Of a DNA stretch of 64,000 nucleotides, positions 11,277 to 61,034 are shown piece after piece. Position 1 is the first letter of the stretch; each line of letters starts with the position of its first letter. This DNA comes from a bacterium (lineage in GTDB: Bacteria > UBA8248), in the NCBI GenBank assembly GCA_965221165.1, contig CBDCRP010000003.1:2048001-2112000 (forward strand), written 5' to 3'. The notes beneath the pieces are model-generated. The model made no database searches, was not told the origin of the DNA, and was given only the letters and a program-made list of their open reading frames with translations. The translations under genes were made by a program, and so were the position numbers.

Positions 11277-11289
11277 GGGAAACCCCCTT

Positions 11290-12063: not shown

Positions 12064-12091
12064 CTCTCTTGCGCAAGCGGATTTCTTTGGG

Positions 12092-12343: not shown

Positions 12344-12395
12344 GGCCCGCCGGTAAAAGCCGGATTATAGCGTATCGCTCAGGCTTTGAAAGCGG

Positions 12396-14080: not shown

Positions 14081-14164
14081 TTTCTCACCTCCGCGGCTTT
14101 TGGGGAGCGGACGCCGGTGGAGCCGGCGGGGTCGTTTCAAAGCATCGCCAGAGCATCTTTCGCG

Positions 14165-15805: not shown

Positions 15806-15830
15806 TATGAAAGCGCCTCGGCCGGTTTCC

Positions 15831-16416: not shown

Positions 16417-16459
16417 CTCCGCGCCCTCCCGGCCGGGGACGATGGGACCGGCTCGCCGC

Positions 16460-16600
16460 TTAGGCGGAAACGCCGATGCGTTTGCGGCCCTTGGCCCGGC
16501 GGCGCTTGACGATCGCGCGTCCCCCGGTGGTTTTCATCCGGCGACGAAACCCGTGCGTCTTTACCCGTTTTCTTCTGTTCGGCTGGTAAGTCCGTTTCAC
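16460..16600 (-). CDS. rpmH: 50S ribosomal protein L34
   Basis: Below the ORF-track cutoff: [51 protein letters not shown]. Confidence 0.97.
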
Positions 16601-16684
16601 CAAACGCTCCATCTGTCGGCATCAAAGCCGATCCTTCAACCCGCCACATAATAATGAAGGGAACTTCTTCAAGAAGCCGAGCGT

Positions 16685-16713
16685 AAAGTAGCCACCAAAG
16701 CCTTGATTGTCAA
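16685..16713 (-). promoter_or_regulatory. Sigma70-type promoter for the rpmH operon
   Basis: TTGACA-17 nt-TACTTT on the minus strand. Confidence 0.6.
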
Positions 16714-16850
16714 GAACCTTTTGCCGGACTTCGCTCGAATGAACTCCTCCTGAACGAGGAGGGCGCCGCCTTCGGCTCCCTTCGCTTTTCCCCCAGAGAG
16801 GCCGTCCTTTTGGTTTGTGAACGCCGAACGCCGAAAATTTTGCCGTTTTT

Positions 16851-16931
16851 TGTGGAAAATGCTTGCTTTTGCTGCCCTGTTTGTGGAAAAATACCCTCCT
16901 GGCTCAATCCTTTCTCTGGCCCTGTGGAAAA
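16851..16931. promoter_or_regulatory. DnaA-box cluster upstream of dnaA
   Basis: Three co-oriented TGTGGAAAA (=TTTTCCACA) at 16851, 16882 and 16923. Confidence 0.75.
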
Positions 16932-16999
16932 ACATTGCTTTTGCGCGACCAAAGAGCCCAAGCCGCGCAATGGCCATTGCAAATCGGTTAAAGCCTATA

Positions 17000-18349
17000 A
17001 TGAACCTTTGGCTGCGCTGCACGGAAAAAATCAAGGAAGAAGTCTCCCCCCAGACGTTCGCTCGCTGGTTCGCCGGCGTCGAACAACTCGGCTCAAACGA
17101 ATCCTCCCTGGCGATCCAGGCGCCCGATTCGTTCACGGCGGACACCCTCCGCTCGCGGTATTGGGGAATCATCACGGACATACTACAACAAGAGGCCGGG
17201 CCGAACGTCGTGCTCACCCTCTCGGCGAACAACGGTTCGAGCAACAGCGCGGGCCCCGCGCAGACGCCCGTCGCGACGCACAAAGAGGCGGTGATTCAGG
17301 AGATGCCCCAGGCCCCCGCCGAGCGGCCGGAATTCCTGAATCCCAGGTACCATTTCGAGAACTTCGTGGTGGGCAGTTCGAACGAATTCGCCCACGCTTG
17401 CAGCCTTCGCCTGGCGGACGGCATGGGGGCCACGCTCAACCCGCTTTTCATCTACGGCGGGGTGGGCCTCGGGAAAACCCATCTGCTGCACGCCATCGCC
17501 CACCGCATCCTCGACCAGCGTCCGAGAGCGCGCATTGTCTACACCTCGTCCGAGAGCTTCATCAACGATCTCATCTCCTCGATTAGACAAAACCAGATGG
17601 CCGCGTTCAGAAGCAAATACAGAAAAGTGGACAGCCTGATGATAGACGACATCCAGTTCATCGCGGGCAAGGAGCGCACGCAGGAGGAGTTTTTCTTCAC
17701 CTTCAACGCCTTGCACGAGGGAAAAAAACAGATCGTCATCACGAGTGACAAGATGCCTAAGGACACCCCGGGACTGGAAGAGCGCCTCAGGTCGCGCTTC
17801 GTCTCCGGGATGATAGCGGATATCGGCGCGCCCGACTTCGAGACCAAGGTGGCTATCCTGCAAAAAAAGGCGAGCGAACAGAACCTCTTTCTCGACCGCG
17901 ATGTCGCCCACTACATCGCCGAGAGGGTTCGCTCCAACATCCGGGAACTCGAGGGTTGCCTCATCAAACTCAGCATTCACGCCTCTTTACACAACATCGA
18001 TGTAGACCTCCCCGTCGCGCAAGAAGTGTTGCAAGGCATCATCCGCGACCCGGGGCGCAACTCCTCGGTGGACAACATCCAGAAGATCGTCGCCGAACAT
18101 TTCCAGGTCCGCGTGACCGACCTCAAATCGAAAAACCGCTCGCGCTGTTTCGCCCTTCCCCGCCAGATCGCCATGTTCCTCGCGAGGAAACTCACCCGTG
18201 CCTCGACCACGGAAATCGGCCGTCGCTTCGGCGGCAAGGATCACTCCACGGTGATTCACTCCACCAACAAAATCGAAGGCCTGCTCAAGACGGATCAGTC
18301 CCTCTCCGCCACGATTCATACAATCCAGCAAAAAATAGACATCTCCTAA
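17000..18349 (+). CDS. dnaA: Chromosomal replication initiator DnaA
   Basis: LNPRYHFENFVVG, NPLFIYGGVGLGKTH, IDDIQF, FGGKDHSTV; start trimmed to MNLW. Confidence 0.98.
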   Translation: MNLWLRCTEKIKEEVSPQTFARWFAGVEQLGSNESSLAIQAPDSFTADTLRSRYWGIITDILQQEAGPNVVLTLSANNGSSNSAGPAQTPVATHKEAVIQEMPQAPAERPEFLNPRYHFENFVVGSSNEFAHACSLRLADGMGATLNPLFIYGGVGLGKTHLLHAIAHRILDQRPRARIVYTSSESFINDLISSIRQNQMAAFRSKYRKVDSLMIDDIQFIAGKERTQEEFFFTFNALHEGKKQIVITSDKMPKDTPGLEERLRSRFVSGMIADIGAPDFETKVAILQKKASEQNLFLDRDVAHYIAERVRSNIRELEGCLIKLSIHASLHNIDVDLPVAQEVLQGIIRDPGRNSSVDNIQKIVAEHFQVRVTDLKSKNRSRCFALPRQIAMFLARKLTRASTTEIGRRFGGKDHSTVIHSTNKIEGLLKTDQSLSATIHTIQQKIDIS

Positions 18350-18570
18350 AAAAGTGGAAAGAGTTGTGGAAAATCCTGTTGATTTCTCTGTTTCCGGCGA
18401 TTCTCATGAAAAAACAACCATTCATTCGCCTTTGCCCACACGAAAATCCACACCCTTTCCGTGGAGCAAGAGATTTCTTTTCAACGCTTTAAGCTGTTTT
18501 TCACAATTTCAACGCCTCTACTACTACTACCTTTTAGATGTTATATTAGGTCTTAGAAGAACCAGTGCCT
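18350..18570. other. oriC unwinding region (DnaA boxes, DnaA-trios, AT-rich stretch)
   Basis: Boxes TGTGGAAAA 18365, TTGCCCACA 18432, AAATCCACA 18444, tandem TTTTTCACA/ATTTCAACG 18497-18514, then (CTA)4C at 18518-18530 and an AT-rich stretch. Gene orientation diverges around this region. Confidence 0.85.
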
Positions 18571-18581
18571 GAGAATAACTC

Positions 18582-22203
<3,622 letters not shown>

Positions 22204-22238
22204 CTTGGGCGCAAAGGATCGCGCCGCCCGGAATTTCC

Positions 22239-22673
22239 CTAGAAGCGCGCTTCCTCGTGGCAGCGCACGCACACGCCGTGCAGTCCCAAAAGCCCCTTGG
22301 CGGTCGCGTCTATTTTTTGCGTCTTCGCCGCCTTGGCGAGACTTGTGGCGGCGCCTTCGAGTTGGCGCGAGAAGACGAGCATCGAATTATCCCCCCGGAA
22401 TTCCTCCGCGCGCGGCAGCATTTTCGCCGTCGCGGCGATGGACTTTGCGTGTTTTTCGATGATCCCGTACGGCGTCTCGTTCACCAGTTCCTGGACCGAG
22501 GCGATCAGGGCGGCCTGCACCAGCGCGACGAAGTCCGCATCCATCTTCTCCATCAAATCCCCCGCCTCGGGCGCCTGGGCGTCGCCTTTCATCGGGGAGA
22601 CGAGAAGCGCCGGAAGAATGGCGACGAGCGCGACGAGACGAACGAAGCGGCCGGACACAAGAGGGAATCGCAT
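22239..22673 (-). CDS. Exported class II (cytochrome c'-like) c-type cytochrome
   Basis: Signal peptide, helical composition and a C-terminal CVRCH heme-binding motif. Confidence 0.75.
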   Translation of the reverse strand: MRFPLVSGRFVRLVALVAILPALLVSPMKGDAQAPEAGDLMEKMDADFVALVQAALIASVQELVNETPYGIIEKHAKSIAATAKMLPRAEEFRGDNSMLVFSRQLEGAATSLAKAAKTQKIDATAKGLLGLHGVCVRCHEEARF

Positions 22674-22982
22674 GGGGGACCTCGCTCGAAAGGAGATGAG
22701 GGCTTGAATTTCACACCGGTTTCGGACGCGCTTATTGTCCACGAAGGAAGCGCCCGGGGCAATCGGGCGAACGGAGGAAAACTCAAGCCCCCAACCCATT
22801 GAAACAAGGGCGCTTACAGTCTCTGAAAATCGCAGCGTTCGCGCGATTCCATTTTGCCATTACAACCTTTTTCATGGTATAAATGGAGGAGTTTATTTTT
22901 CCCGCCTGAGTCGCCCCTGTCCGGCATTTTGAGCGTCGTTGCGGCTTTTGTTTCATGCCGTCGCCAGGAGAGTTTCGAGAGC

Positions 22983-25412
<2,430 letters not shown>

Positions 25413-25427
25413 ACGAATGGGTGGGTA

Positions 25428-27002
25428 ATGCAAGCCAAAAATAAAGCGGCGGCGTGTCCGCCTCTCCTCTGTGTGTCGGCGCGTTTCCTCGCGCTGGCCT
25501 TCCTGGGTTTCGGATGCGTCCCCATAGGACTGACCGCCCGGGAACCGATATCGCCCGAGCGAAAAACGGTTCGGGCCGCCGCTCTCCCCTCCGGGACGCT
25601 CAAGCGAACGCCTCCACCGCAGCGCAAGCCGCCTTCTCCCGTGCGGCCTGCGCCCTCGCCGGAGTCTGCGCCTTCAGTGGAATTCGAGCCTCCCCCGTCG
25701 AGCCGCGCCGAGACTTTGAGCGCAACAGGAGAATCTGCTTATCGGCAGGAAGATTATAAATTCGCCGAGAAGAGTTTTCGTGAGGCGCTCATTCATGAGC
25801 CGGAGCTTCTCCATGCCCTCACTGGCCTTGGCTGGACCCTGTATGACGCGAATCGTCCTGATGAGGCCTTTTTCTTTTTCCGGCGGGCGAACGCACGCTA
25901 CCCCGAAAGCGGGAGCGCACGCCGCGGGTTCGCCTATTTGCTGTATCGATACGGGCGGCTGAAGGAGGCGGAGGCGCTCCTCGGAACGCTCGATAAGACG
26001 AGATGGCCCGAACTCACCAACATCGAGCATGAACTCAAGGCGCGGGCCATCAAGGGCCTGCCCGCTCCTCGGGTTCCCGGCGAAAAGAGCGAAGACAAGA
26101 GCGAGGGGCCGTCGCCCGGACCCGCCTCCCCTCTGCCGGAGCCAGGACCAGAACCAGAGCCACAACGGGAACAAGAACGAAAATCCGAAACCGCGAGGCT
26201 CACGCTCCCAAAGCTTGCGCCTTACGAGGCAAAACCACCTGCCCCGTCGGTCAAGGATGCCGCACCGCCGCCTCCCGTCCGAAAGCCCTCTCTCGAAGGG
26301 ATGGTGAAAATTCCCGGCGGGCGTTTCATGATGGGAGCCAGGTTCACCTACCCGAAAAGGTCGCGTCGCAGATGGCGCCGTAGAAGAAGGCCTCCAAGGG
26401 CGTCGGGTGGACGGCCGGTCGAGGTCGGGCCTTTTCGTCTGGACAAGCTGGAGGTGACGAATTCTCTTTACGCGGATTTCGTACGGGTGACGAATGGGCC
26501 CGAGCCTCCTTTTTGGCGCAAGGTCCACTTCACCGGCCCGCATCTGCCCGTGGTCGGGGTGACGTGGGAGGAGGCGCGCGCTTATTGCGCATGGGCCGGA
26601 AAGAGGCTGCCCACGGAGGCCGAATGGGAATACGCCGCCCAGGGCGCGGGGAAGGCGAGGCGTTATCCGTGGGGGAATACGCAGCGCGACAGGAACGCCG
26701 TTTTTGGCTTGAGTCCCGACGCCGGAGGCCCCAAGGCCGTGGGAAGACGCCCGGAGGGCGCCAGCATTCACGGGGTGGAGGATTTGGCCGGAAACGTCTG
26801 GGAATGGGTGGAGGATGTGTTCAGGGCAGATCCCGAAGACGCGCAGCCGATCGCCCGAAACGGCCGGGCGCTCCGAACGCTCAAGGGCGGCTCCTGGGTG
26901 AACGGTTGGTGGGCGCTGGCCTCATCACGAAGAACGGGCGACCTCCCCGAACGCCGATTGCCCGCATACGGGTTTCGCTGCGCTGCGGATGCGGCGAAAT
27001 GA
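25428..27002 (+). CDS. Putative lipoprotein: TPR repeats, Pro-rich linker and FGE-sulfatase (SUMF1/EgtB/PvdO-type) domain
   Basis: Lipobox-like LGFGC; TPR-like helices; EVTN, RLPTEAEWEYAA, DLAGNVWEW, GFRC. Confidence 0.85.
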   Translation: MQAKNKAAACPPLLCVSARFLALAFLGFGCVPIGLTAREPISPERKTVRAAALPSGTLKRTPPPQRKPPSPVRPAPSPESAPSVEFEPPPSSRAETLSATGESAYRQEDYKFAEKSFREALIHEPELLHALTGLGWTLYDANRPDEAFFFFRRANARYPESGSARRGFAYLLYRYGRLKEAEALLGTLDKTRWPELTNIEHELKARAIKGLPAPRVPGEKSEDKSEGPSPGPASPLPEPGPEPEPQREQERKSETARLTLPKLAPYEAKPPAPSVKDAAPPPPVRKPSLEGMVKIPGGRFMMGARFTYPKRSRRRWRRRRRPPRASGGRPVEVGPFRLDKLEVTNSLYADFVRVTNGPEPPFWRKVHFTGPHLPVVGVTWEEARAYCAWAGKRLPTEAEWEYAAQGAGKARRYPWGNTQRDRNAVFGLSPDAGGPKAVGRRPEGASIHGVEDLAGNVWEWVEDVFRADPEDAQPIARNGRALRTLKGGSWVNGWWALASSRRTGDLPERRLPAYGFRCAADAAK

Positions 27003-27065
27003 GGTATAATGCGCGGACATCTTGCGAACACATACAGAACTCGACTCCCTGAAAAAGGAGAGAAC

Positions 27066-27611
27066 ATGTTTTTGATAAGAAAATTATTTCTACGATTGCT
27101 GCTCGCAACGCTTGGGGTCGTCCTTTTGGCGGCGAGCGCCGAGGCGCAGAGCTTGACGCCGCCGCCGCTGACCCCGCCCGAAACGCAGCCCGCTCTGCCC
27201 GGAACCGTTCCGGGCCAGCCGCCTTCGGCGGCCCCGGCTCTGGCGCCGCCCGCGCCCGCGATGCCGCTGCAAGCTCCCCTGACGCCGGCGGAGCCGCAGC
27301 GCCCCCTGGACCTCATCGTCACCATCACGCTGGCGACGGGAAAAGCCGAAACCTTCGCCCGCGAGATCGATCGGCTGGAGATCATCACCCGCTCCGGCGG
27401 GGACGTCGCGATGATCCATCTGCTTCTGGTCACCGGCGGGGAGCGGAACACGCACGTCTGGTACAACTATGCCCGGGTCGCCAAGCTGAGCTATCGCTTC
27501 GTCTCTCCCGAGGGGAAGGCGAAAGTATATGTGCGCCCGATGCTGGCATCGCCCACGACGAGGGAGCTCACGGACAGGCTGGAGCCGCTCAGCCCCCGCG
27601 AGTTCCGGTAA
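27066..27611 (+). CDS. Hypothetical exported Pro-rich protein
   Basis: AGGAG RBS, signal peptide ending AEA, Pro-rich segment and a small beta domain. Confidence 0.7.
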   Translation: MFLIRKLFLRLLLATLGVVLLAASAEAQSLTPPPLTPPETQPALPGTVPGQPPSAAPALAPPAPAMPLQAPLTPAEPQRPLDLIVTITLATGKAETFAREIDRLEIITRSGGDVAMIHLLLVTGGERNTHVWYNYARVAKLSYRFVSPEGKAKVYVRPMLASPTTRELTDRLEPLSPREFR

Positions 27612-27623
27612 GGCGCTCGGCCG

Positions 27624-28523
27624 ATGGGCGATAAGGGCTACGCGAATCCAGGTATCGCCCTTACGCCGGCGCAACTCGCAAAGCGCATCGGCGAGCGCAA
27701 GGGAGATGACCTCGTCATCATCGACACCCGCCAGGCGCCGGAGTTTTGCGCGGGCCACATCGAGGGCGCCGCGCACCTTGATTTGTACGGAATCTCGCTC
27801 AACGACACCCGGCCCCAGGCCTTGGCCGCCTTCACCTGGATGCTCGCCTATCTCATGGAGATACGGGGCGTCGATTACGACACGACGGTGGTCTTCTACC
27901 AGGAGAACTCAGGGTTTCGCGCAGCGCGCGGGTTCTGGTTCCTGGAATATCTGGGCCACGAGGACGCGCACGTTTTGGACGGCGGGGTCGACGCTTGGAA
28001 GGCCGGGGGCCTGCCCGTCACGCGCGAGGCCTGGCCGATGGCGGGCGGACCATACGAAGCGGGGGTCGAGGGCCACAGGCGCATCTTGAGAACCTCGTTC
28101 GCGAGCCGGCTGAAGTCGTATGAGGAAGGCCGCATCGCCACGGCGGACTACATCTTGAACCATCTGGGCGATCCGGGCGTCGAGATTCACGACACGCGCT
28201 CCGAGGGCGAATATTTCGCCGAGAACGTTCGGGCCGCGCGCGGCGGCGCCGTTCCGGGTTCGGTCCACCTGGAATGGACGGAGGCCATCGCGGAGGACGG
28301 CTCGCTCAGGCCCGCCTCCGAACTGGTGGAACTGCTCGAACCGAGGGGACTGACGCCCGACAAGGAAATGGTGCCGCTCTGCCAGGGCGGCTACCGCTCG
28401 GCGCACGCCTATCTCGTCTACCGGCTGCTCGGCTATCCGAGGATCAGGAACTATCTCGGCTCCTGGAAAGAGTGGGGCGACAGGGAAGATCTGCCCATCG
28501 AAGTCCCCAAGCGAAGCGCGTAG
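27624..28523 (+). CDS. Sulfurtransferase (tandem rhodanese, SseA-like)
   Basis: GHIEGA, LDGG..AW, catalytic LCQGGYRS, YLGSWKEW. Confidence 0.93.
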   Translation: MGDKGYANPGIALTPAQLAKRIGERKGDDLVIIDTRQAPEFCAGHIEGAAHLDLYGISLNDTRPQALAAFTWMLAYLMEIRGVDYDTTVVFYQENSGFRAARGFWFLEYLGHEDAHVLDGGVDAWKAGGLPVTREAWPMAGGPYEAGVEGHRRILRTSFASRLKSYEEGRIATADYILNHLGDPGVEIHDTRSEGEYFAENVRAARGGAVPGSVHLEWTEAIAEDGSLRPASELVELLEPRGLTPDKEMVPLCQGGYRSAHAYLVYRLLGYPRIRNYLGSWKEWGDREDLPIEVPKRSA

Positions 28524-34127: not shown

Positions 34128-34553
34128 ATGTTCACGATTGCCAAGCGCACGGATTACGGCTTGATGGCGCTCTCCTACCTTGCGGAGCAGGAAGAGGACG
34201 AGGCCATTACCTCGCGGGCCATCGCGTGCAGGTTCCACATTCCCGCCGAACTGCTTGCGAAGACGATGCAGCTACTGGCCAAAAACGGACTCGTGGAGTC
34301 GCGAAACGGGCCCAAGGGCGGCTATGTTCTCTCTCGCCGGCCGGAGACGATTTCTGTGGCGGAGGTCATTCGGGCCATCGAGGGGCCCATCGCCATGGCG
34401 ACGTGCCAGGCAGACGGCGTCTCGGGGTGTGAACAATACGAGAAATGTACGATTTTTTATCCCATGGAAAGGATCCAGAAAAAGGTGACCGACGTGCTTG
34501 AGGGAATGACCCTTCAGGACATGGTGGGTACGCCTGCAGGAGAGATCAGATGA
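34128..34553 (+). CDS. Rrf2-family Fe-S cluster assembly regulator (IscR-like position)
   Basis: Winged HTH with GPKGGY and three C-terminal Cys; first gene of the isc operon. Confidence 0.88.
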
Positions 34554-35770
34554 GCTTGAAGTTCCCCATTTACATGGATTACCAGGCGACGACGCCCATG
34601 GACCCCCGGGTCCTCGATGCGATGAATCCCTACTTCGGCGATAAGTTCGGCAACGCCGCGAGCCGCAACCACAGCTTCGGCTGGGAGGCGGAGAAGGCCG
34701 TGGACGACGCGCGGGAGCAACTCGCCGCCGTCATCGGCGCGGACCCGCGCGAGATCATCTTCACGAGCGGCGCCACGGAGTCGGACAACATGGCGCTCAA
34801 GGGCGTCGCCGAGATGTACAAGAAAAAAGGCAACCACGTCATCACCTCGGCGATCGAGCACAAGGCCATCATCGATTCCGCCAAGCGGCTCGAGACGTGG
34901 GGCTTCGACGTCACCTACATCGAGCCTCCCGAGAACGGCATCACGACGACGGAGATGGTCGAGAACGCCATGCGCGAGGACACCATTCTGGTCTCCATCA
35001 TGGCGGCGAACAACGAGGTCGGCGTGCTGAACCCCATCGCCGAGATCGGGGCGCTGTGCCGCGGGCGGGGCGTTCTTTTCCACACGGACGCCACGCAGGG
35101 CTACGGCAAGATTCCCATCGACGTGGACGAGATGAACATCGACCTGCTCTCGGCCACGGCCCACAAAATCTACGGGCCCAAGGGCGTGGGAATGATTTAC
35201 GTGCGCAGGCGCAGGCCGCGCGTTCGCCTTTCGGCCATCATCGACGGCGGCGGCCATGAGCGGGGAATGCGCTCGGGCACGCTGAACGTCTCGGGCATCG
35301 TCGGTTTCGGCAAGGCGGCCGAGTTGTGCATGGAGGAGATGGAAGAAGAGAACATCCGCTTGACGAACCTGCGGGACAAGTTCAAGTCCATCATGTTCGA
35401 GAGCCTGGAGGAGGTGTACGTGAACGGCCATGAAACAGAGCGCCTCTCGGGCAACCTCAACCTGAGCTTCCCCTACGTGGAGGGAGAATCGCTCATCATG
35501 GGGCTGAGCGACGTGGCCGTATCCTCCGGCTCCGCCTGCACTTCGGCAAGCCTGGAGCCGAGCTACGTGCTCAAGGCCATGGGCCGGGGCGATGAGTTGG
35601 CGCATTCGTCGATTCGCTTCGGGTTCGGGCGTTTTTCCACCGAAGAGGAGATGGAATACGTGGCCGAGAAGACGACGGACATCGTGATCCGGCTTCGCGA
35701 GATGAGCCCGCTCTATGAGATGGTGAAAGAGGGCGTCGATCTCTCCAAGGTGGAATGGCAGTCGCATTAA
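34550..35770 (+). CDS. iscS: Cysteine desulfurase IscS
   Basis: [31 protein letters not shown]. Confidence 0.96.
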
Positions 35771-35854
35771 ATGAGTGCTTTGAGCATATTATGATATAGG
35801 GGCTGCGGCTCACGGAAACCTGGAATCGCAGCGACCGGGAAAAGGAGAACAAAA

Positions 35855-36265
35855 ATGGCTTACAGCGAAAAGGTGGTCGATCACTACAACAACCCCCGCA
35901 ACGTCGGCTCGCTCGACAAGAGCGATCAGACGGTGGGCACGGGCATCGTCGGCGCGCCCGAGTGCGGCGACGTGATGAAGCTGCAGATCAAGGTGGACGA
36001 AGGAGGCCTCATCGAGGACGCGAAGTTCAAGACGTTCGGCTGCGGAAGCGCCATCGCCTCGAGTTCTCTGGCCACCGAGTGGCTCAAGGGCAAGACGGTG
36101 GACGAGGCCGAGGAAATCAAGAACACGCAGATCGTCGAGGAGCTCAACCTCCCGCCCGTGAAGATTCACTGTTCCGTGCTGGCGGAAGACGCCATCAAAA
36201 CCGCGCTGAACGATTTTCGCGAGAAGAACGGGGTGCCGGTCGTCGAGCGCAAGGGCCACCACTAG
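35855..36265 (+). CDS. iscU: Fe-S scaffold IscU
   Basis: GAPECGD, FGCGSAIA, LPPVKIHC. Confidence 0.97.
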   Translation: MAYSEKVVDHYNNPRNVGSLDKSDQTVGTGIVGAPECGDVMKLQIKVDEGGLIEDAKFKTFGCGSAIASSSLATEWLKGKTVDEAEEIKNTQIVEELNLPPVKIHCSVLAEDAIKTALNDFREKNGVPVVERKGHH

Positions 36266-36296
36266 GAGCGGGCGACTCGCCGGCAGGGAGTAGGAA

Positions 36297-36653
36297 ATGG
36301 AAACCGCTGCGAAAAAACTGAGCCTCGAAGTGACCGACAAGGCGGTGGACAACATGCGCCGCTTCATGGAGAAAGAGGGCAAGCAAGGCCATGTCCTCCG
36401 CGTCGGCGTGAAGGGCGGGGGCTGCTCCGGTCTTTCTTACGTCCTTCAGTTCGAGGGCGAGGAGCGCATCAACCCGCTGATGGACGAGGTGTTCGAAAAA
36501 AACGGCATCCGGGTGGTCGTGGACAAGAAAAGCCTTTTTTTCCTGGCAGGCACCACGCTGGAGTATGAAGACGGGCTGACGGGCAAGGGTTTTACGTTCA
36601 AAAACCCCAACGCACGTCAGTCCTGTGGTTGCGGGGAAAGCTTTTCCGCGTAA
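36297..36653 (+). CDS. iscA: Fe-S assembly A-type carrier IscA
   Basis: GGGCSGLSY, NPNA..SCGCGESF. Confidence 0.93.
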   Translation: METAAKKLSLEVTDKAVDNMRRFMEKEGKQGHVLRVGVKGGGCSGLSYVLQFEGEERINPLMDEVFEKNGIRVVVDKKSLFFLAGTTLEYEDGLTGKGFTFKNPNARQSCGCGESFSA

Positions 36654-36758
36654 CGCAACCGGGATGAAACGCGCCGCGCCCATGCACCGTGGGATAGCGA
36701 CGCGTTTTTCTTTTGAGTTCATGGCGCCCGGCGGTTCATGCGGGCCTGGAATCGCGCG

Positions 36759-37400
36759 ATGAGCGAAGCGACGAAAGAAGAAGTCTTTTCCATTTTCGAT
36801 GAAGAGGGCGGAATAGCGCCCATCCCCGCCCAGGTCGATCATTTCGCCTTGTTGGGGTTTCAGCGGAAATTCAGGGTCGACGCCGAAGCGCTGGAAGCCA
36901 GGTTCTACGAACTGAACCGGAAACTCCACCCCGATTTTTTCATGGATGCGCCCGTCGCGGTCCGAATCCGGAGCCTGGATGCGACCGCCCGCATCAACGA
37001 GGCCTATCAGACGCTCAAGGATCCGATAGCGCGCGTGGTGTATCTGGTGGAACTCGAAACCGGAAAGCTCGAGGAGAACGAGAGGACGCCCCCGCCCGAG
37101 TTGTTCGAGGAGATATTCGAAGCCCAGGAGGCGGCGGCGGAGTTTCAGTGCTGTGCGGACCAGGAGGAAGCCGAGAGTTTGCGGGAGCGTCTCCATGCGG
37201 CCATGGGGTGTTTTTCGGTGCTTCGCCACGGCCAGCGCACGGCGCTCGACAGGCTGGGCGCCGCCTGGGACGGAGCGATGGACAAAAACGAACCCGCCCC
37301 GCCCGAGGTCGTGAAGAAGATGCGCTCCATTCTCGGGCAGAGAAACTACATCGAGAACACCCTCACGAGCCTCAAGCGCGCCTTGGAGGAGAGTGAATGA
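36759..37400 (+). CDS. hscB: Fe-S co-chaperone HscB
   Basis: J-domain HPD, INEAYQTLKDP..R..YL; operon context. Confidence 0.9.
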   Translation: MSEATKEEVFSIFDEEGGIAPIPAQVDHFALLGFQRKFRVDAEALEARFYELNRKLHPDFFMDAPVAVRIRSLDATARINEAYQTLKDPIARVVYLVELETGKLEENERTPPPELFEEIFEAQEAAAEFQCCADQEEAESLRERLHAAMGCFSVLRHGQRTALDRLGAAWDGAMDKNEPAPPEVVKKMRSILGQRNYIENTLTSLKRALEESE

Positions 37401-39232
37401 GCCAAATCGTCGGGATCGACCTGGGCACCACGAACAGCCTGGTCGCCTCCGTTTCGGAAGGTGAGCCGACGATCCTCGCGCCCGAGGACGAGCGTGGCAT
37501 CGTGCCCTCCGTGGTGAGCTTTCGCGCCGATCGTGTTCTCGTTGGCGAGGAGGCGCAGGATGAGCGCGTCTCCAACAGCCGAAACACCATCTTTTCCATC
37601 AAGCGATTCATGGGCAGAGGCTATGAGGACGTGAAAGACGAGATGCGCCGCCTGCCCTTCGATGCGGACCCCGGGGAGAAGGAAGTCGTTCACGTGCTGG
37701 CCCGGGGGCGATCCTACAGCGCACCCGAAGTAAGCGCCCTGGTGCTCAGGCGCCTGAAGGCGAGGGCCGAGAAGGCGCTGGGGCGGCCCGTGCTCAGGGC
37801 GGTGGTCACGGTTCCTGCGTATTTCAACGACGCGCAGCGCCAGGCCACGAAAGACGCGGGCAAGCTCGCGGGCCTGGAAGTGCTCCGCATCATCAACGAA
37901 CCCACGGCGGCTTCCCTGGCCTATGGCCTTCATGAGCGAAACCGAGGCGTCATCGCGGTGTACGACTTGGGGGGAGGCACGTTCGACATCTCGCTCCTTA
38001 GAATCAAGGACGGCGTGTTCGAGGTGCTCTCCACCGGGGGGGACACCCATCTGGGCGGAGATGATTTCGATCAGGCGATTTCCCTCAACATACAGCAGGA
38101 AATCCTTGGGGCGCATGGCGTTGATTTGGGCGAAACGCCCGAGGCTCTGGCCGAACTCACGGTTTTGGCCGAACGGGTCAAGAAAACGCTGTCAGAGCGC
38201 GATTCGGCGGAATATGGGCTGGAAAATCCGGGCGGCATCCCGCTCGCCCACAAGAGCAGCCTCACGCGTGAGGAGATGGAGGCGCTTCTCGCGCCGATCG
38301 CCGAGCGGACGCTGGCGCCTTGTAGGCGCGCGCTCGCAGACGCGGGCCTCACGCCCGATGAGGTGCATGAGATCGTTCTGGTGGGCGGGTCCACCCGCAT
38401 GCCCCTCATCCGCCGCATGGTGGAGGATTTGTTCCAAAAACGCCCGCATGTGGACCTGGACCCCGACGAGGTGGTGGCCCTGGGCGCCGCGGTGCAGGCG
38501 GACATCCTCGCGGGCGGCAGAAAGGACATGCTGCTCCTGGACGTGACGCCGCTTTCTCTGGGCATCGAGACCATGGGCGGCGTCATGGGCTGGATAATTC
38601 CCCGCAACACCACCATCCCCACGAGCGCCAAGGAAACGTACACCACCTTCAAGGACAACCAGACGGGGGTGGACGTTCACGTGCTCCAGGGAGAGCGCGA
38701 ACTGGTGAAGGACAACCGCTCGCTCGCGCGTTTTCGCCTGGCGGTCGACCCCGCGCCGGCCGGTCTCGCCCGTGTGGAGGTGACGTTTCTGCTCGACGCC
38801 AACGGCATTCTAAACGTGACGGCCCGGGATCTCAGGAGCGGCAAGGCGTCCTCGGTGGAAGTCCAGCCCTCCTACGGGCTGACGGACGAGCAGGTCGAGC
38901 GCATGCTGATCGAATCTTTCGAACACGCGGAACAGGATATCCGCTCCCGCCAGGTTCTGGACGCGAGAACCGAGGCGGAAACCATTCTCATGGCGACGGC
39001 CCGCGCGATGAACGACTACGCGGAGGATGCGGTCTCTCCCTCGGAGCGCGCCAAGATTCATGAAGCGGTGAGCGCACTCGAGGAGTCCTGCCGGGGGGAA
39101 GACCCGGGACGGATTCGGGATATGGTCGACGCGCTGAATGAAGTCACGATGCCGCTCGCGGAGCGGATGATGGATAACGTTTTGAAATCGGCCTTGGAAA
39201 ACAAGAGGGTGAGCGAAGCCCTCAAAGACTAA
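37397..39232 (+). CDS. hscA: Fe-S chaperone HscA (Hsp70)
   Basis: [28 protein letters not shown]; isc context. Confidence 0.92.
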
Positions 39233-39271
39233 AAGCCGCAAGCAGTTTGCGCGGGGCGCAGGGGAAGAAAA

Positions 39272-39628
39272 ATGGCGAAACTTTATTTTACGGAAGAGAA
39301 GCAGACGATTGACATTCATGTGGGCGAGAACATTCTCGAAACGGCCCTCGAAAACGGCGTCGACCTGGATCATGCCTGCGGCGGCGTGTGCGCTTGCTCG
39401 ACGTGTCACGTGAAAATCAGGAACGGCGCGGATCTCTTCAACGAATCCACCGAAGATGAGGAAGATCAGCTCGACGACGCGCGCGACGTGAACCTCGACA
39501 GCCGGCTGGCCTGCCAGGCGACGCTGGAGAGAGAAACCGACGAGGTCATCGAAGTGGAGGTGCCGTTCTGGAACGTGAACCTGGTGCAGGAGGGTCCGGA
39601 TGCCGCCAGGGAGCAAAGCGCTCATTAG
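39272..39628 (+). CDS. fdx: ISC [2Fe-2S] ferredoxin
   Basis: HACGGVCACSTCH ... SRLACQ. Confidence 0.93.
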   Translation: MAKLYFTEEKQTIDIHVGENILETALENGVDLDHACGGVCACSTCHVKIRNGADLFNESTEDEEDQLDDARDVNLDSRLACQATLERETDEVIEVEVPFWNVNLVQEGPDAAREQSAH

Positions 39629-39653
39629 GAATTTCGAGCCGGGAGAGGAAGCG

Positions 39654-39872
39654 GTGGAAACATTTGGCTGGGAGGACGCCGAGGACATCGGCATCGTGTT
39701 GTACGAAAAATTTCCGAAGATCGACCCGCTCACCGTTCGTTTCACCGATCTGCACGACTGGGTGTGCGAACTGGAGGAGTTCGAGGACGACCCGATGACC
39801 TCGACGGAGGGCAAGCTCGAGGCCATCCAGATGGCGTGGCTCGAGGAATACAAGGATGCGCAGGAGGCTTGA
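39654..39872 (+). CDS. iscX: Fe-S assembly protein IscX
   Basis: W.D.EDI, DPLTVRFTDLH.WV, LEAIQMAWLEE; GTG start after GGAGAGG. Confidence 0.93.
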   Translation: METFGWEDAEDIGIVLYEKFPKIDPLTVRFTDLHDWVCELEEFEDDPMTSTEGKLEAIQMAWLEEYKDAQEA

Positions 39873-54741: not shown

Positions 54742-54834
54742 CGGAGATTTCCGCTTGGGGAAAAGCCGCCATATCCCGCGCCGCCTGAGCCGTGGCGCGG
54801 CGTCGATGGACGCTGGCTTTAAGGGAGATTGTCG

Positions 54835-55080
54835 ATGTCGGACTTGGAAGTGACGGTGTATTCATCATCCACGTGAGCGCCCTGTAAGGCGGTGAGAGAG
54901 TTTCTCTCCCATCATGGCGTGGCGTATACGGAAAAACTCGTCGATCAGGATGAACAGGCCCTGGAGGAATTATTCCAGAGGGCGGACATGCGGGCCACGC
55001 CCGTGATTTTCGTGGACGATGAGAAGGTGGTCGGCTTCGATCGGGCGAAGCTCGAAAAGCTGCTGGGGCTCGCCGCATGA
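54835..55080 (+). CDS. Glutaredoxin/NrdH-like redoxin with in-frame UGA (putative selenoprotein, UAPC)
   Basis: GGGAG RBS, ATG 54835 MSDLEVTVYSSST-TGA(54874-54876)-APCKAVREFL...ATPVIFV....VGFD. The ORF track shows only the part after the UGA. Confidence 0.9.
54877..54920 (+). promoter_or_regulatory. Putative SECIS hairpin (glutaredoxin)
   Basis: GCGCC...GAGAG[AGUUU]CUCUC...GGCGU; the apical loop is 22 nt after the UGA with G at position 2. Confidence 0.6.
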
Positions 55081-55376
55081 GCGAAAACCGCAGGACCCTC
55101 GCCTGTCCCGGCTGAGGGCAACGCATACCCGTCCCGTGGGATGCGAAAACGCGCGATCTGGTCGATTGCGAGAATTGTGCGGGGGTGAGATTCCGCTTGG
55201 GCCGAGCGGAGGGGGCGGAGGTTCTCACTATCGTGCAGATGGTTTCATGCCCCCTTTGTGGTGAATACATACCGGTGGATGAGGACACCCCCGCAGGTTC
55301 CGTTTTCGAGCACGACGGAAAAAAACTGCGCCTCGATAAGGAATTCGGCGCATTCGTCCTGGCGCCCGAGGAGTAG
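55077..55376 (+). CDS. Tandem zinc-ribbon (LysW-like) protein with in-frame UGA (putative selenoprotein, CPGU)
   Basis: ATGA overlap with the Grx stop; MSENRRTLACPG-TGA(55113-55115)-GQRIPV...DLVDCENCAG...SCPLCGEYIPV...VLAPEE. Confidence 0.8.
55116..55145 (+). promoter_or_regulatory. Putative SECIS hairpin (zinc-ribbon gene)
   Basis: CGCAU-A-CCC[GUCCCGU]GGG-AUGCG; the loop begins with G, 15 nt after the UGA. Confidence 0.55.
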
Positions 55377-55498
55377 GGGCGCGATTGGATTCAGGGAAGA
55401 AATTCCGAGGTCTGTTTCCTTCGCGGTGAGTTGTTGATAGAGTATCGGTGCGTTCAGCGAGAGCGCATCTGCAAGAAAGGATTGCACGGGAGCATGTG

Positions 55499-55891
55499 AT
55501 GGCTTCTCGACCACAGGCCACTATACCGCTGGATCACGCCGACAAATTGAATCGGGACTTGCTCGCGCAATTGGAGGAGCTTGAAAAAACTCCCGAGGAG
55601 GATCGTTGGCCCGAAGCGGTGTGGCCTACCGCTCAAGCGTTTAAGGATGCGGAAATTTTCGTTCGGAAGCTGCCGCTGGGCTCGATTCCCATGCCCTATA
55701 TAGGGCTGGCCGATGACGGGGAAGTCAATTTTCTATGGAAAAAAGATGGTGTTCATGTTGATCTTGGGTTCTATGGAACGCGTACTTATACTTACTTTGC
55801 GCACGGTAAAGATGGACACCCAATCGACGGCGAAGATATTCCGGCATCCGAAGGATTGCCTTCCGAAATCGTAGAACTGTTCACGGTCTGA
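55499..55891 (+). CDS. Hypothetical acidic protein (possible antitoxin-like partner)
   Basis: Lower GC; W...A..A..F...L....P.I....DGEV.F.W pattern. Confidence 0.65.
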   Translation: MASRPQATIPLDHADKLNRDLLAQLEELEKTPEEDRWPEAVWPTAQAFKDAEIFVRKLPLGSIPMPYIGLADDGEVNFLWKKDGVHVDLGFYGTRTYTYFAHGKDGHPIDGEDIPASEGLPSEIVELFTV

Positions 55892-55898
55892 TACAACC

Positions 55899-56417
55899 TT
55901 GCAAGCTCCTTCTCCACATCTTGACGAGGAAAAATGCGCCGCGCCGGGAATCTCTCCCGGGGTTGTCGAGGACGAGGAGTTTCTTCTTCGAGAGATGTTC
56001 AACCCACAGCATGTCCAGGATGGGGAAGTGCTTGAGACTGCGATACCAGCAAAGGACCTTTGGAAGAAAGGATTTTCTGTTCATCGGATGAAGTACGTTT
56101 CAGTTGAGTTCATAAAAAATGCGGTCGAAGTACGCCTGTCTCGTCCCAGAAAAGGCGAACCCTGGAAAGACGAGGGTGTGGCGAAGCTACAAACGCTATC
56201 TGTACGACAGCTTCTTACAGATGACGACAAAAAGGCGTTTGTTGTTATTGATACGGCCACGGAAGACAACCCCGGACATGCCAGCATATATATGGCCGAG
56301 TATATTGCAGAGCCTAAAAAAGGCGAAAGACATGCAAGGAGATTCAGGCATTTGCTTCTGGATATTCTTCAAAACAGAATGACCATAGATGAGGCGTATG
56401 CCGGTGCGATCGGTTAG
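55899..56417 (+). CDS. Hypothetical protein (possible ART/RES-like toxin fold)
   Basis: Lower GC; LLR...GFSVHR...D...DNPGHASI pattern. Confidence 0.65.
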   Translation: MQAPSPHLDEEKCAAPGISPGVVEDEEFLLREMFNPQHVQDGEVLETAIPAKDLWKKGFSVHRMKYVSVEFIKNAVEVRLSRPRKGEPWKDEGVAKLQTLSVRQLLTDDDKKAFVVIDTATEDNPGHASIYMAEYIAEPKKGERHARRFRHLLLDILQNRMTIDEAYAGAIG

Positions 56418-56471
56418 TCATTTGGAGCAACATTGTATATAATCCCTTTTCCTTAGTTCTGGAGATTCGTT

Positions 56472-57428
56472 TTGGCAGAACGTGATTTCGAAATCATCAT
56501 CATCGGGGCCGGGCCTGCGGGGCTGACGGCGGGGCTTTATACGGCGCGTTCCAAGCTGAACGTGGTCTGCTATGAAAAACTCGCGCCCGGCGGCGAGATT
56601 CTCAACACCGAGCACGTGGAAGACTACCCGGGCTTCGAACTGGTCGGCGGGCAGGAACTGGCGGCCAAGTTCACCGATCACGCCATGAAGTTCGGCTTGC
56701 GGATCGAGATGGAAGAAGTCTCCGAAGTGAGAAAGGACGGGGATGATTTCCTCGTCGTCACCGACATGGGCGAGCGCCGCTGCGGGGCGGTGATTTATAC
56801 GCCCGGCGGCTATCCGAGAAAGCTCGCGATTCCGGGCGAGGAGAAATACGCGGGCAAGGGCGTCAGCTACTGCGCGCTTTGCGACGGCGCGTTTTTTCAG
56901 GATGAGGTGATCACCGTCGTGGGCGGCGGGAACAGCGCCGTGGAAGAGGGGCAGTTCCTCACGAAATACGGCACGAAGGTCTACCTCATTCACCGCCGCG
57001 ATCAGTTCCGCGCCCATGCGGTCTTGATGGACAGGATTCGCGAGAATCCCAAGATGGAGATCATCACCGACCACGTGGCGGAAGAGGTGGTGGGCGATGA
57101 CAGGGAGATGAAGAAGCTGCGCATCAAGAATGTGAAGACAGGTGAGACGCAGGAACTCGACGCCACGGGCCTGTTCGTTTTCATCGGTTTTATTCCGAAC
57201 ACGGATTTGATAAAAGATCACGTAGAAAAGGACGATGCCGGCTTTATCCTCACGGATCAGAACATGGAGACGAATGTTCCGGGCCTGTTCGTGGCCGGTG
57301 ATTGCAGAAGCCAGTTGATTCGCCAGATCACCAACGCATCGGGCGATGCGACGACGGCGGCGGTGGCGGCCGAGAAATATCTCGAAGCCCAGGTGGAGGC
57401 CAGGAAACAGGCCGCGGCGGCTTCCTAG
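56472..57428 (+). CDS. trxB: Thioredoxin-disulfide reductase
   Basis: GAGPAG, GVSYCALCDG, GGGNSAVEE, HRRD, FVAGD. Confidence 0.95.
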   Translation: MAERDFEIIIIGAGPAGLTAGLYTARSKLNVVCYEKLAPGGEILNTEHVEDYPGFELVGGQELAAKFTDHAMKFGLRIEMEEVSEVRKDGDDFLVVTDMGERRCGAVIYTPGGYPRKLAIPGEEKYAGKGVSYCALCDGAFFQDEVITVVGGGNSAVEEGQFLTKYGTKVYLIHRRDQFRAHAVLMDRIRENPKMEIITDHVAEEVVGDDREMKKLRIKNVKTGETQELDATGLFVFIGFIPNTDLIKDHVEKDDAGFILTDQNMETNVPGLFVAGDCRSQLIRQITNASGDATTAAVAAEKYLEAQVEARKQAAAAS

Positions 57429-57450
57429 GGTTCAAGGCGAGGAGAGGGAA

Positions 57451-57999
57451 ATGGAGTTCACCAGGGGGCTTCGGAAGTTTTTTCTCTGGGATATCGTGAA
57501 GGGCATGTCCGCCACACTGCGGCACATGTTCAAAAAACCCGTCACGCTTCAATACCCGACGGAGCGCTGGGAGCCGCCCGAGCGTTATCGGGGCTTTTTG
57601 GGCTTGACGCGCGATTTCAAGACGGGCGAGGAGCTTTGCATCGGCTGTCTGAACTGCGAGAAGGCCTGTCCGGTCGACTGCATCACCATCGTCACGGCGG
57701 GCAAGGGCCGCGAGATGTACGCCAAGGAGTTCTACATCGACTACATGCGGTGCATGTACTGCGGGCTTTGCGTGGAGGCGTGCCCCACGACGCCTAAATC
57801 CATCGTCCACACCCACCAGTACGAGACGACCGGCTATTTCCGCGAAGATCTCGTCTACGAGAAAGAGCGCCTCTACGACGTCTGGGAAAAAGAGATGAAC
57901 TACACCGGCCCCCGTCCCTGGGGCAAGCTGTTCGGCCTAAGGAACCAGGAGGCGGACACACGGCCCGAAACCCCTGCCGAGACGGCGCCCGCCGAATAG
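57451..57999 (+). CDS. NuoI-like 2x[4Fe-4S] protein (stand-alone)
   Basis: KPVTLQYP, RYRG, CIGCLNCEKACP, CMYCGLCVEACP. Confidence 0.85.
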   Translation: MEFTRGLRKFFLWDIVKGMSATLRHMFKKPVTLQYPTERWEPPERYRGFLGLTRDFKTGEELCIGCLNCEKACPVDCITIVTAGKGREMYAKEFYIDYMRCMYCGLCVEACPTTPKSIVHTHQYETTGYFREDLVYEKERLYDVWEKEMNYTGPRPWGKLFGLRNQEADTRPETPAETAPAE

Positions 58000-60231: not shown

Positions 60232-60609
60232 CTAGATTCCCAGTTCGTTGAACACGCGCAGCGACTCATCCGTCGCGCCCACGGCGTTGGGAGCGCCCGC
60301 GTAGATCGCGCACACCATGATGATCTCCTGAATATCCTCTTTCGTCATGCCGATGCGAAGCGCCGCCTTGGCGTGGTACCCGAACTCCCTGTCCCGGCCC
60401 ATGGCGCACAGGACGGAGAGGATCACCGTCTCGCGGGTCTTGTCGTCGATGCCGTCTCGCGCGTAGAGATCGCCGTACACGGCTTCGGTGACGAACTGCG
60501 CGAACGCGGGACTCGCCTTCGCGAAAGCCTGGCGCCTCTCCTCTCCTTCCTCGCCGAAGATCCTCGCGCGGGTTCTCAGTCCTCTCTCGAGACGTGTTTC
60601 TTCGCTCAT
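60232..60609 (-). CDS. Carboxymuconolactone decarboxylase family protein
   Basis: RLERGL..R, YGDLYAR.G.D.KTRE, H..AAL..G, IYAG.P. Confidence 0.85.
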   Translation of the reverse strand: MSEETRLERGLRTRARIFGEEGEERRQAFAKASPAFAQFVTEAVYGDLYARDGIDDKTRETVILSVLCAMGRDREFGYHAKAALRIGMTKEDIQEIIMVCAIYAGAPNAVGATDESLRVFNELGI

Positions 60610-60773
60610 CAGATCGACCTCCTTGTGCGTGGACGGGCGTAAAGGCCCGTCCCGGGATGAATGCGCGCGGCCCCCTCCGGGGGCTCGCGGGTGGTTTTGC
60701 CGGAATGTTTCCTGAGGCTTATATTGAATAGCGTATGTAAGAGCGCATTACCATGCCATCAGGGAGATTCAAC

Positions 60774-61034
60774 GTGAAACTCGACGCTGTGAAATTCGGC
60801 CTGGCCGCAGGCATCATCTACGGGGCCATGTTTTTCCTCTACGCCCTTTTGGGCGCGCTGTTCGGCGTGGGCGGGGAGATGCTGAGGATGATAGGCGATT
60901 TCTATCCGGGCGTTTCCCCCACCTACCCGGGCGCGATCATCGGAGCGGCCTGGGGGTTCGCGATAGGCTTTTTCTTCTTCACGCTCCTGGCGTGGATATA
61001 CAACCGTCTTCTGGGACGGGGGGAATCGCCCTAG
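60774..61034 (+). CDS. Small membrane protein (2 TM)
   Basis: KLD..KFGLA.G, YPG, G.IIG..WGF, AWIYNR; GGGAG RBS. Confidence 0.7.
   Translation: MKLDAVKFGLAAGIIYGAMFFLYALLGALFGVGGEMLRMIGDFYPGVSPTYPGAIIGAAWGFAIGFFFFTLLAWIYNRLLGRGESP

Follow-up and report, generated by a model that had tools for sequence, protein, structure and literature searches.

A conserved, overlapping gene pair for a putative selenocysteine-containing redoxin and a tandem LysW-like zinc ribbon in Nitrospinota-like bacteria (UBA8248)

A glutaredoxin with selenocysteine (Sec) at the first position of its active-site motif (PF00462, UxxC) is entered as an experimentally verified selenoprotein in Table 1 of the review PMC13188914, citing Kim et al. 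2011 ('Tandem use of selenocysteine'), and its specialisation for a Sec-containing substrate is entered there as experimentally verified too. Two genes that recall this arrangement lie in a 64,000-nucleotide stretch of contig CBDCRP010000003.1, from an uncultured, Nitrospinota-like bacterium of the GTDB lineage UBA8248 (hereafter the window, meaning the whole of the DNA analysed). The first encodes a glutaredoxin-like redoxin and the second a protein with two zinc ribbons, and each is interrupted by an in-frame TGA codon which, judging from the comparison of related sequences, is very likely read as Sec. An earlier note on this DNA had described these two genes, a low-GC insert of two genes behind them and, further downstream, the thioredoxin reductase gene trxB and a gene for an orphan NuoI-like ferredoxin, and had suggested that electrons pass from NADPH through TrxB and an NrdH-type Sec-redoxin to the ribbon protein, possibly as an undescribed di-selenoprotein system. 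All four elements were found where the note had placed them, in one co-oriented run on the + strand.

Closest described systems

The window redoxin appears to share with the Sec-glutaredoxin its fold, the Sec at the first CxxC position, the occurrence of Cys at this column in homologues and the tuning of a Sec-redoxin to a Sec partner. It differs from it in that the active site reads U-A-P-C, the partner is a zinc ribbon and not MsrA, the two genes overlap, and the best match is YruB/Cp9 and not a classical glutaredoxin. Taken alone, the first gene is a member of this already known kind. A second comparison is offered by the Cp34/Cp9/Cp20 system of Clostridium pasteurianum (YruB) and by NrdH with TrxB, as set out in PMC3720550: the features common to them and, seemingly, to the window are a glutaredoxin-like redoxin of about 75-80 residues, a nearby flavoprotein donor of the thioredoxin reductase (TrxR) type and a dedicated target, the Cp9/YruB redoxins being encoded between the TrxR and the target and carrying electrons between them. 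The window redoxin differs in scoring below both family cut-offs, in having Sec for Cys, and in having neither a peroxiredoxin gene nor nrdIEF adjoining. The donor candidate differs as well, since the window TrxB carries H-R-R-D-Q-F-R in its NADPH-binding region, which we take to be the NADPH-type motif H-R-R-x-x-x-R.

For the second gene, the closest solved relatives are LysW and ArgW (3vpb_E, 5k2m_E, 3wwn_B), which have in common with it the LysW fold, found in each of its halves, and the ligand pattern C-P-x-C-G...C-x-x-C-G. The window protein differs from them in being a tandem, in carrying Sec, in the loss of the last Cys of its second ribbon (E-H-D-G), and in having neither a lysine or arginine context in the window nor a carrier tail. 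Predicted Sec forms are listed for another zinc ribbon, the FmdB family (TIGR02605/COG2331), in Table 4 of PMC2398784 and Table 1 of PMC13188914; there, too, a CxxC knuckle in a small zinc ribbon has Sec where Cys would stand, with up to two Sec per protein. However, as these two sources present it, the two Sec of FmdB share a single UxxU knuckle and no redoxin partner is reported, whereas in the family of the window protein Sec occupies the second position of two different knuckles and a redoxin is encoded alongside. The Mer relay for Hg(II) (MerT with the HMA domain of MerP or NmerA) and the MerT/CopZ selenoprotein (NF045683) have a small Cys/Sec-rich domain fused to or beside a MerT-like protein, an arrangement also met in a few relatives of the ribbon protein. 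They differ in that the ribbon family is a tandem LysW and not an HMA domain, its similarity to MerT lies below threshold, and the window has no mer gene and no MerA.

The 2026 review PMC13188914 lists 119 prokaryotic selenoprotein families in its Table 1, with no LysW-like or PF21344 entry, and no selenoprotein model of NCBIfam release 20 matches the ribbon protein. Full-text literature searches found nothing on a selenocysteine LysW, a selenoprotein zinc ribbon, a Nitrospinota selenoprotein of this type, or MerT with a zinc ribbon; an earlier description in BSepDB or in specialist lists is possible. With the ribbon protein, a selenoprotein family not previously recognised would stand beside one already known. 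In the suggestion of an undescribed di-selenoprotein system it is the ribbon half that seems to be undescribed, the Sec-glutaredoxin kind being known.

In-frame TGA codons and the two proteins

Related loci were obtained by scanning one genome per species, which yielded 13 (L001 to L013); where 14 sequences are counted, the window is included. All 13 come from metagenome-assembled genomes (MAGs) labelled Nitrospinota, Nitrospinaceae or 'bacterium'. In Table 2 of PMC13326102, MAGs labelled Nitrospinota (GTDB phylum UBA8248) are reported to have 48-54 selenoprotein genes. Codon 14 of the redoxin is TGA in all 14 sequences. In the first ribbon of the second protein, ligand 2 (codon 13) is TGA in 12 of the 14 and TGT in L001 and L013, and ligand 4 (codon 34) is TGA in nine (L001, L002, L004-L010) and TGT or TGC in the window, L003, L011, L012 and L013. 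Counted per ribbon site, this gives two Sec in eight loci, one in five sequences and none in L013, whose ribbon is all-Cys; L001 has its single ribbon Sec at ligand 4 instead of ligand 2.

These TGAs are more than chance stops, because they recur in the relatives, because distant homologues have Cys at the same columns, and because the surrounding sequence varies as coding sequence does. Thus, over the 14 sequences, the variable sites favour third codon positions before, between and after the TGAs, with counts at positions 1/2/3 such as 3/1/8, 10/6/18 and 25/24/51; the second of these covers ribbon codons +1 to +23, and the third-position pattern moves with a shifted frame. Among the homologues, 11 full-length redoxins (38-46% identical) could be aligned, all with C-x-x-C at the Sec column; the alignment that includes these Cys forms shows no variation at C14 or C17. 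In the ribbon alignment, C13, C31 and C34 are invariant over 26 distant relatives, at least 90% of which retain C10. Automatic annotation truncates both proteins: a word-indexed search with the ribbon protein returned 12 close relatives, every one of whose gene calls begins 3' of the first TGA (nine of them after position 34), and the 14 closest database matches of the redoxin are shortened to 55-72 residues, covering 60-77% of the query.

The signals expected downstream of a Sec codon are less clear. The apical loop of the canonical bacterial selenocysteine insertion sequence (SECIS) contains G. The hairpin behind the redoxin TGA is conserved throughout the 14 sequences, one of its pairs being compensatory (G-C/A-U), and has an apical loop of U-U-U and a folding z-score of only -1.7; in the relatives with TGA at ligand 4, a 9-bp hairpin lies 15 nt 3' of that UGA. 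Three points weigh against recoding: the hairpin energies are not significant against shuffled sequences (z = -0.9 to -1.75), the hairpin behind ligand 2 lacks a conserved consensus across loci, and no selA, selB, selD or tRNA-Sec was found within the 64-kb window by a tRNA scan (0 genes) and a profile scan of the open reading frames (ORFs). Rfam gave 0 matches for the whole window at gathering thresholds, and for the region of the pair at E<=10 noise only. The SECIS evidence, taken alone, is of moderate strength; it is because of the Sec/Cys pairs and the coding signal that the recoding of the TGAs as Sec is considered very likely. Both genes behave as real selenoprotein genes, as had been supposed. 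Elsewhere in the window, the CMD/PcaC-like gene at 60232-60609 has no upstream Sec extension.

The redoxin matches Pfam Glutaredoxin (PF00462) over residues 6-63 with 58.1 bits (cut-off 22.9), and it carries an N-terminal V-T-V-Y-S strand, a cis-Pro and a G-F motif. Its best NCBIfam model is YruB/Cp9 (TIGR02196), with 78.4 bits under a cut-off of 88.55, followed by Grx3, NrdH and UXX-star selenoprotein models, every one below its cut-off. For the UXX-star models NF041212, NF041211, NF041114 and NF047338 the scores are 44.8, 30.6, 24.1 and 27.6 bits (cut-offs 66-100); the bases after the terminal TGA of the redoxin vary among loci, and the Sec three residues before the stop that marks UXX-star proteins is not seen. 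Assignment to NrdH was rejected, given that the NrdH-redoxin model (TIGR02194) reaches 50.7 bits under a cut-off of 85.75, that the motif is U-A-P-C and not the C-[VMI]-Q-C by which PMC3720550 defines NrdH, and that there are no nrdIEF neighbours. Thus, of the 'NrdH-type' redoxin proposed earlier, the glutaredoxin fold stands and the subfamily label is imprecise.

In the ribbon protein, C-P-G-U is followed by C31-E-N-C34, C58-P-L-C61 and E-H-D-G. An exhaustive HMMER search with it, covering 1.84 billion representatives, returned 43 relatives (E<=1e-3), of which the 26 full-length ones (about 84-129 residues) were aligned with the window protein and 17 that were truncated, much longer or partly matched were omitted. 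Pfam Zn_ribbon_LysW (PF21344) is matched by all 27 aligned members, the window protein reaching 28.8 bits (cut-off 27); against NCBIfam LysW/ArgW (NF041070) it scores 41.1 bits, under the cut-off of 75, and TIGR01206 (LysW) is not matched. A profile search of the PDB with the 26 natural all-Cys members assigned the second half to LysW 3vpb_E (E=4.4e-5) and the first half to 5k2m_E (E=0.0036). AlphaFold2 models of the window ribbon protein (pLDDT 86.5) and of its all-Cys homologue P0016 (pLDDT 88.9) are all-beta, with the same nine strands. In a Foldseek search of the PDB, the best match of the P0016 model was again LysW 3vpb_E (probability 1.00, target TM 0.81, rmsd 2.1); only LysW chains were meaningful, and no solved two-domain counterpart was returned. 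The protein is a tandem of two LysW-type zinc ribbons, whose second ribbon reads H-D-G in this clade and (C/H)-C-G in many relatives, the last Cys having been lost. It is distinct from LysW itself, because it scores below the curated cut-offs, is a tandem, lacks lysine-pathway neighbours and does not consistently keep a terminal Glu.

Other assignments of the ribbon protein were tried and rejected. It does not match the FmdB zinc ribbon (TIGR02605) at E<=0.01, and its relatives P0092-P0094 reach 17-19 bits there, under the cut-off of 31.3. A rubredoxin-like iron centre, suggested by the knuckle motifs, found no rubredoxin family match in Pfam or NCBIfam. A tblastn search against plasmids gave no match. 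The longer relatives P0040, P0046, P0054, P0055, P0051, P0023, P0047 and P0053 contain no redoxin fusion, being transposase, multi-ribbon or beta-propeller proteins.

Gene order in the window and in related loci

Ten window proteins were compared with the 13 loci by tblastn. Each of the 13 has the redoxin gene next to the ribbon gene, and the 4-base start/stop overlap, (A/G)TGA, is kept in all 14 sequences; the two constitute a conserved, translationally coupled unit, so that the earlier description of consecutive, coupled genes with a TGA at a motif Cys in each is borne out by codon reading and by the overlap. The coordinates of the features are collected in Table 1. The whole block from an AP-endonuclease-like gene to nrnA is syntenic, its proteins being mostly 85-98% identical (63-82% in L013).

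Table 1. Features of the redoxin/ribbon locus, in window coordinates.
Feature	Position	Strand	Basis and remarks
Shine-Dalgarno-like AAGGGAGA	54821..54828	+	read directly; 6 nt 5' of redoxin ATG
Sec-glutaredoxin-like redoxin gene, 81 aa, active site T-U-A-P-C	54835..55080	+	ATG at 54835; translation, profile matches, alignment
TGA, very likely Sec, redoxin codon 14, first Cys position of CxxC	54874..54876	+	TGA in window and 13/13 loci
SECIS-like stem-loop, beginning 3 nt after redoxin UGA	54877..54925	+	18 predicted pairs, one compensatory G-C/A-U pair
ATGA overlap of ribbon start codon and redoxin stop	55077..55080	+	(A/G)TGA in 14/14 sequences
Tandem LysW-like zinc-ribbon gene, predicted to contain Sec, 99 aa	55077..55376	+	translation, profiles, alignment, AlphaFold2 model, Foldseek
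TGA, very likely Sec, ribbon codon 13, ligand 2 of ribbon 1 (C-P-G-U)	55113..55115	+	TGA shared with 11/13 loci
Small hairpin 9 nt after ribbon UGA, G-U-containing apical loop, weak SECIS candidate	55122..55145	+	folding
TGT (Cys34), ligand 4 of ribbon 1	55176..55178	+	same codon is TGA in 9/13 related loci
Low-GC insert gene 1, 147 aa, no family	55448..55891	+	GC, profile scans, locus comparison
Low-GC insert gene 2, 172 aa, no family	55899..56417	+	GC, profile scans, locus comparison
Sigma-70-like promoter match TAGTCA-17-TATAAT ahead of trxB	56415..56443	+	10/12 positions match
trxB, low-Mr thioredoxin reductase, C-A-L-C redox motif	56472..57428	+	TIGR01292 and motif reading
Stand-alone NuoI-like 2x[4Fe-4S] protein	57451..57999	+	TIGR01971; two Fer4 motifs

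The region between the ribbon gene and trxB has a GC content of 0.43-0.54 against 0.59-0.63 in its flanks, and the GC content at third codon positions is 0.50 and 0.47 in the two insert genes against 0.77-0.85 in neighbouring genes. Both insert genes are present in seven of the 13 loci (L001, L003, L004, L007, L008, L009, L011) and absent from four (L002, L005, L006, L010), in which trxB follows the ribbon gene after about 121-130 nt; the low-GC insert is thereby confirmed, and the redoxin-ribbon-trxB order without it does exist. In the remaining two the insert is replaced by other genes: L012 has at this spot (10300-15205) a type I restriction HsdR, a DUF4411/PIN protein and an IrrE/M78-type peptidase, and L013 (10352-12390) has MerE-like, MerT-like, MerR-type and SHOCT genes, 2.1 kb of DNA in all before trxB. 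Since its contents differ in this way, from the low-GC pair through the L012 and L013 sets to nothing in four loci, the spot 3' of the ribbon gene (window 55377-56471) is a hotspot for variable cargo. The insert proteins are 59-88% identical among loci, and TrxB 93-98% (82% in L013). A PADLOC scan of the two insert proteins and the pair gave only noise at E>=0.018, and the nearest ESM Atlas clusters of the insert proteins are unnamed hypothetical proteins, with recognition below the guide value of the tool. On the 5' side of the pair, L004 (7646-9758) has about 2.1 kb between a PrpD-like gene and the redoxin gene, compared with about 90-450 nt elsewhere.

The trxB gene scores 361.5 bits on TIGR01292 (cut-off 343.45), with C-A-L-C in its translation, and the NuoI-like gene 122.6 bits on TIGR01971 (cut-off 113.05), so that both identifications stand. 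The latter comes directly after trxB, at a distance of 23 nt in the window, and does so in each of the 11 loci whose sequence continues beyond trxB (L001-L008, L010, L011, L013); it is not part of a nuo operon, lying in the window and in these loci between trxB and a nicotinate phosphoribosyltransferase gene, itself followed by nrnA, and no other complex I gene was found near it. Beyond this constant position nothing ties it to the pair, and its inclusion in the module, as proposed earlier, is not upheld. The trxB gene probably starts its own transcript, because a promoter-like TTGGCA-17-TAGAAT stands between the ribbon gene and trxB in the insert-less loci and TAGTCA-17-TATAAT in the window.

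Other parts of the window were noted in passing. Positions 14168-25409 and 34128-39869 contain a chromosomal origin neighbourhood (mnmE, yidC, dnaA, gyrB, gyrA) together with a full ISC operon for iron-sulfur assembly (iscR-like, iscS, iscU, iscA, hscB, hscA, fdx, iscX). Within 25428-28520 a protein of 524 residues is encoded whose C-terminal part resembles the sulfoxide-synthase domain of SenA (selenoneine synthase)/EgtB, with 84 and 80 bits, far under the cut-offs; two genes beyond it lies a rhodanese-type sulfurtransferase-like gene, and together they may belong to a sulfur or selenium small-molecule pathway. A small ORF at 60753-61031 resembles a bacteriophage holin (NF037947, 58.5 bits under a cut-off of 70), and no other phage genes were seen nearby.

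Possible roles of the pair

The family of all-Cys ribbons, of about 100 residues, has no assigned function, and its MerT fusions are the first functional lead to it. When longer forms were sought with the all-Cys ribbon profile, three proteins were obtained (P0092, P0093, P0094). P0092 (247 residues) and P0094 (296 residues) begin with the tandem ribbon and continue into a membrane domain that contains S-L-C-C-L-L-P-L and, further on, C-x-A-L-A-C. The membrane domain of P0092 aligns with positions 12-111 of 116 of the MerT model (E=2e-5, 24.7 bits), and also matches the models for the MerT/CopZ-fusion selenoprotein, MerTP and RC607-MerT, and Pfam MerT (E=0.0047). P0093, a metagenome protein of 346 residues, was rejected as a fusion: its ribbon stands at the C-terminus of an Arg/Pro/Gly-rich low-complexity ORF without a domain, which has probably been called too long on high-GC DNA. 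Directly behind the all-Cys ribbon gene of L013 come a MerE-like gene (Pfam, 41.7 bits, cut-off 22.8), a fragment resembling MerT and a regulator of the MerR type, whose best model is MerR (TIGR02051) with 138 bits under a cut-off of 150.85. The MerT-like fusions and these mer-like neighbours are two separate, weak pointers to the handling of soft metals of the Hg type. Neither this link of the all-Cys relatives to mercury-type transport, nor the second Sec in the same ribbon of relatives, nor the tandem LysW-like fold had figured in the earlier note.

The reading that we favour, tentatively and somewhat short of even confidence, is that of a Se-ligated ribbon with a soft-metal or redox function, serviced by its dedicated Sec-redoxin, which in turn would probably be fed by TrxB. 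From established chemistry, a site containing Se and S would bind soft metals tightly and be readily oxidised to a selenenylsulfide or diselenide. The site C-x-x-(C/U)...C-x-x-(C/U) of ribbon 1 could thus form a Se/S centre for a soft metal (Zn, or ions of the Hg/Cd/Cu type) and, being based on selenolate, would oxidise easily to these products. The redoxin, which is Cp9/YruB/NrdH-like with U-A-P-C, would attack the oxidised or metal-loaded site and return it to the reduced state, either by reduction or by catalysed ligand exchange, and would itself be re-reduced by the NADPH-dependent TrxB encoded downstream. That the redoxin and the ribbon protein react together is inferred from the gene overlap and from the precedent of a Sec-glutaredoxin with a Sec substrate. 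For TrxB and NADPH as the donor, the argument is the analogy with Cp9/YruB and NrdH, to which the closeness of trxB adds weak support. A bolder form, which we consider unlikely, is that the ribbon, with up to two Sec among its four ligands, would act as a cytosolic acceptor or buffer for metals of the Hg(II) type in place of the HMA domains of the mer system, unloaded and re-reduced by the coupled Sec-redoxin at the expense of TrxB and NADPH; such a selenium-based pair for metal handling would be of a kind not described.

Several findings speak against the proposal. With regard to the metal, the MerT similarity is far under the 150-bit cut-off (24.7 bits for P0092, 15.4 for P0094); each fusion is the only member of its cluster and comes from a short contig (2840 and 1997 nt), and P0094 matches a chromate-transporter domain too, so that artefacts of assembly or gene calling are possible; and no mer-like gene stands beside the pair in the window or in 12 of the 13 loci. 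With regard to TrxB, the outcome that the earlier note named as refuting, a pair not syntenic in relatives and never near trxB, is not what is seen: the pair is syntenic in all 13 loci, 12 of which have trxB no more than 2.2 kb downstream. However, all 13 loci represent one lineage with a syntenic block, so the pairing and the closeness of trxB amount nearly to a single observation, and the proximity has little independent weight. Moreover, the interval from the ribbon gene to trxB is a site of variable islands, a separate promoter-like element stands ahead of trxB both in the window and in the insert-less loci, and in L012 trxB is missing from the 10 kb downstream. Of the functional link proposed earlier, the synteny is thus supported and the coupling to trxB is left in doubt.

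Two alternatives keep the pair functional and redox-active. It is rather unlikely, yet deserves attention, that the pair is a pure redox relay, in which the zinc of the ribbon is structural or absent and its Se/S pair is an end point, or a shuttle from TrxB and the Sec-redoxin to some other target, with no handling of metal. The coupling of the ribbon gene to the redoxin gene and the absence of metal genes near the pair in the window and 12 of 13 loci agree with this, as does the customary interpretation of CxxU and UxxC in uncharacterised selenoproteins as redox motifs (section 7 of PMC13188914), given likewise for the FmdB zinc-ribbon family in the discussion of PMC2398784. Nevertheless, the four Cys/Sec columns are those of the LysW zinc site, and Sec alternates between ligands 2 and 4, as would be expected of equivalent ligands in one centre; the MerT-like fusions and the mer-like neighbours in L013 point the same way, and no downstream target is visible. 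It also seems improbable that the pair is functional while trxB and the NuoI-like gene are mere neighbours, the redoxin being reduced by glutathione, another TrxR or a ferredoxin-dependent enzyme. The promoter-like elements ahead of trxB, the variable island, L012 and the confinement of synteny to one lineage would be accounted for in this way; against them stand the presence of trxB within 2.2 kb in 12 of 13 loci (after only about 121-130 nt in four) and the G-F-D of the redoxin, where classical glutaredoxins have the glutathione-binding motif G-G-x-D-D. In addition, YruB/Cp9 and NrdH redoxins are TrxR-dependent according to PMC3720550.

Two further alternatives were weighed. A LysW-type amino-group carrier working through its C-terminal glutamate, next to an unrelated redoxin, would fit the LysW fold and sequence similarity and the Glu that ends the protein in the window and in 11 of the 13 loci. 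It is nonetheless very improbable: the LysW/ArgW score is little more than half of its cut-off and the LysW model is not matched, LysW has a single domain of about 54 residues where the ribbon protein is a tandem, a scan of 58 window ORFs yielded no gene resembling LysX/Z/Y/J/K, and L012 and L013 have lost the terminal Glu, which in distant homologues is internal or missing. The tail motif of the LysW carrier, E-D-W-G-E, is absent from the ribbon protein. Hardly more credible is that the TGAs are ordinary stops, the real genes being the shorter ORFs (62 and 63 residues) or the locus being in decay, even though gene callers annotate truncated forms only, the window lacks Sec machinery and the hairpin energies are unremarkable. 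A truncated redoxin would lose its entire active site and a truncated ribbon protein its entire first ribbon, whereas the stretches before and between the TGAs are conserved with a third-position bias, Cys stands at the same columns in homologues, TGA and TGY interchange inside the clade, and the Shine-Dalgarno-like AAGGGAGA precedes the long form of the redoxin.

Taking the favoured reading of a Se-ligated ribbon serviced by its Sec-redoxin, the locus would bear on the biology of selenoproteins in several ways. If Sec ligates a metal in the ribbon, the protein would be among the few cases of protein selenolate-metal ligation outside hydrogenases and Mo/W enzymes, and its family would offer a natural example of Sec shifting from one equivalent ligand to another. 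In addition, the overlapping Sec-redoxin gene would supply a second case, open to direct testing, of one selenoprotein devoted to the service of another.

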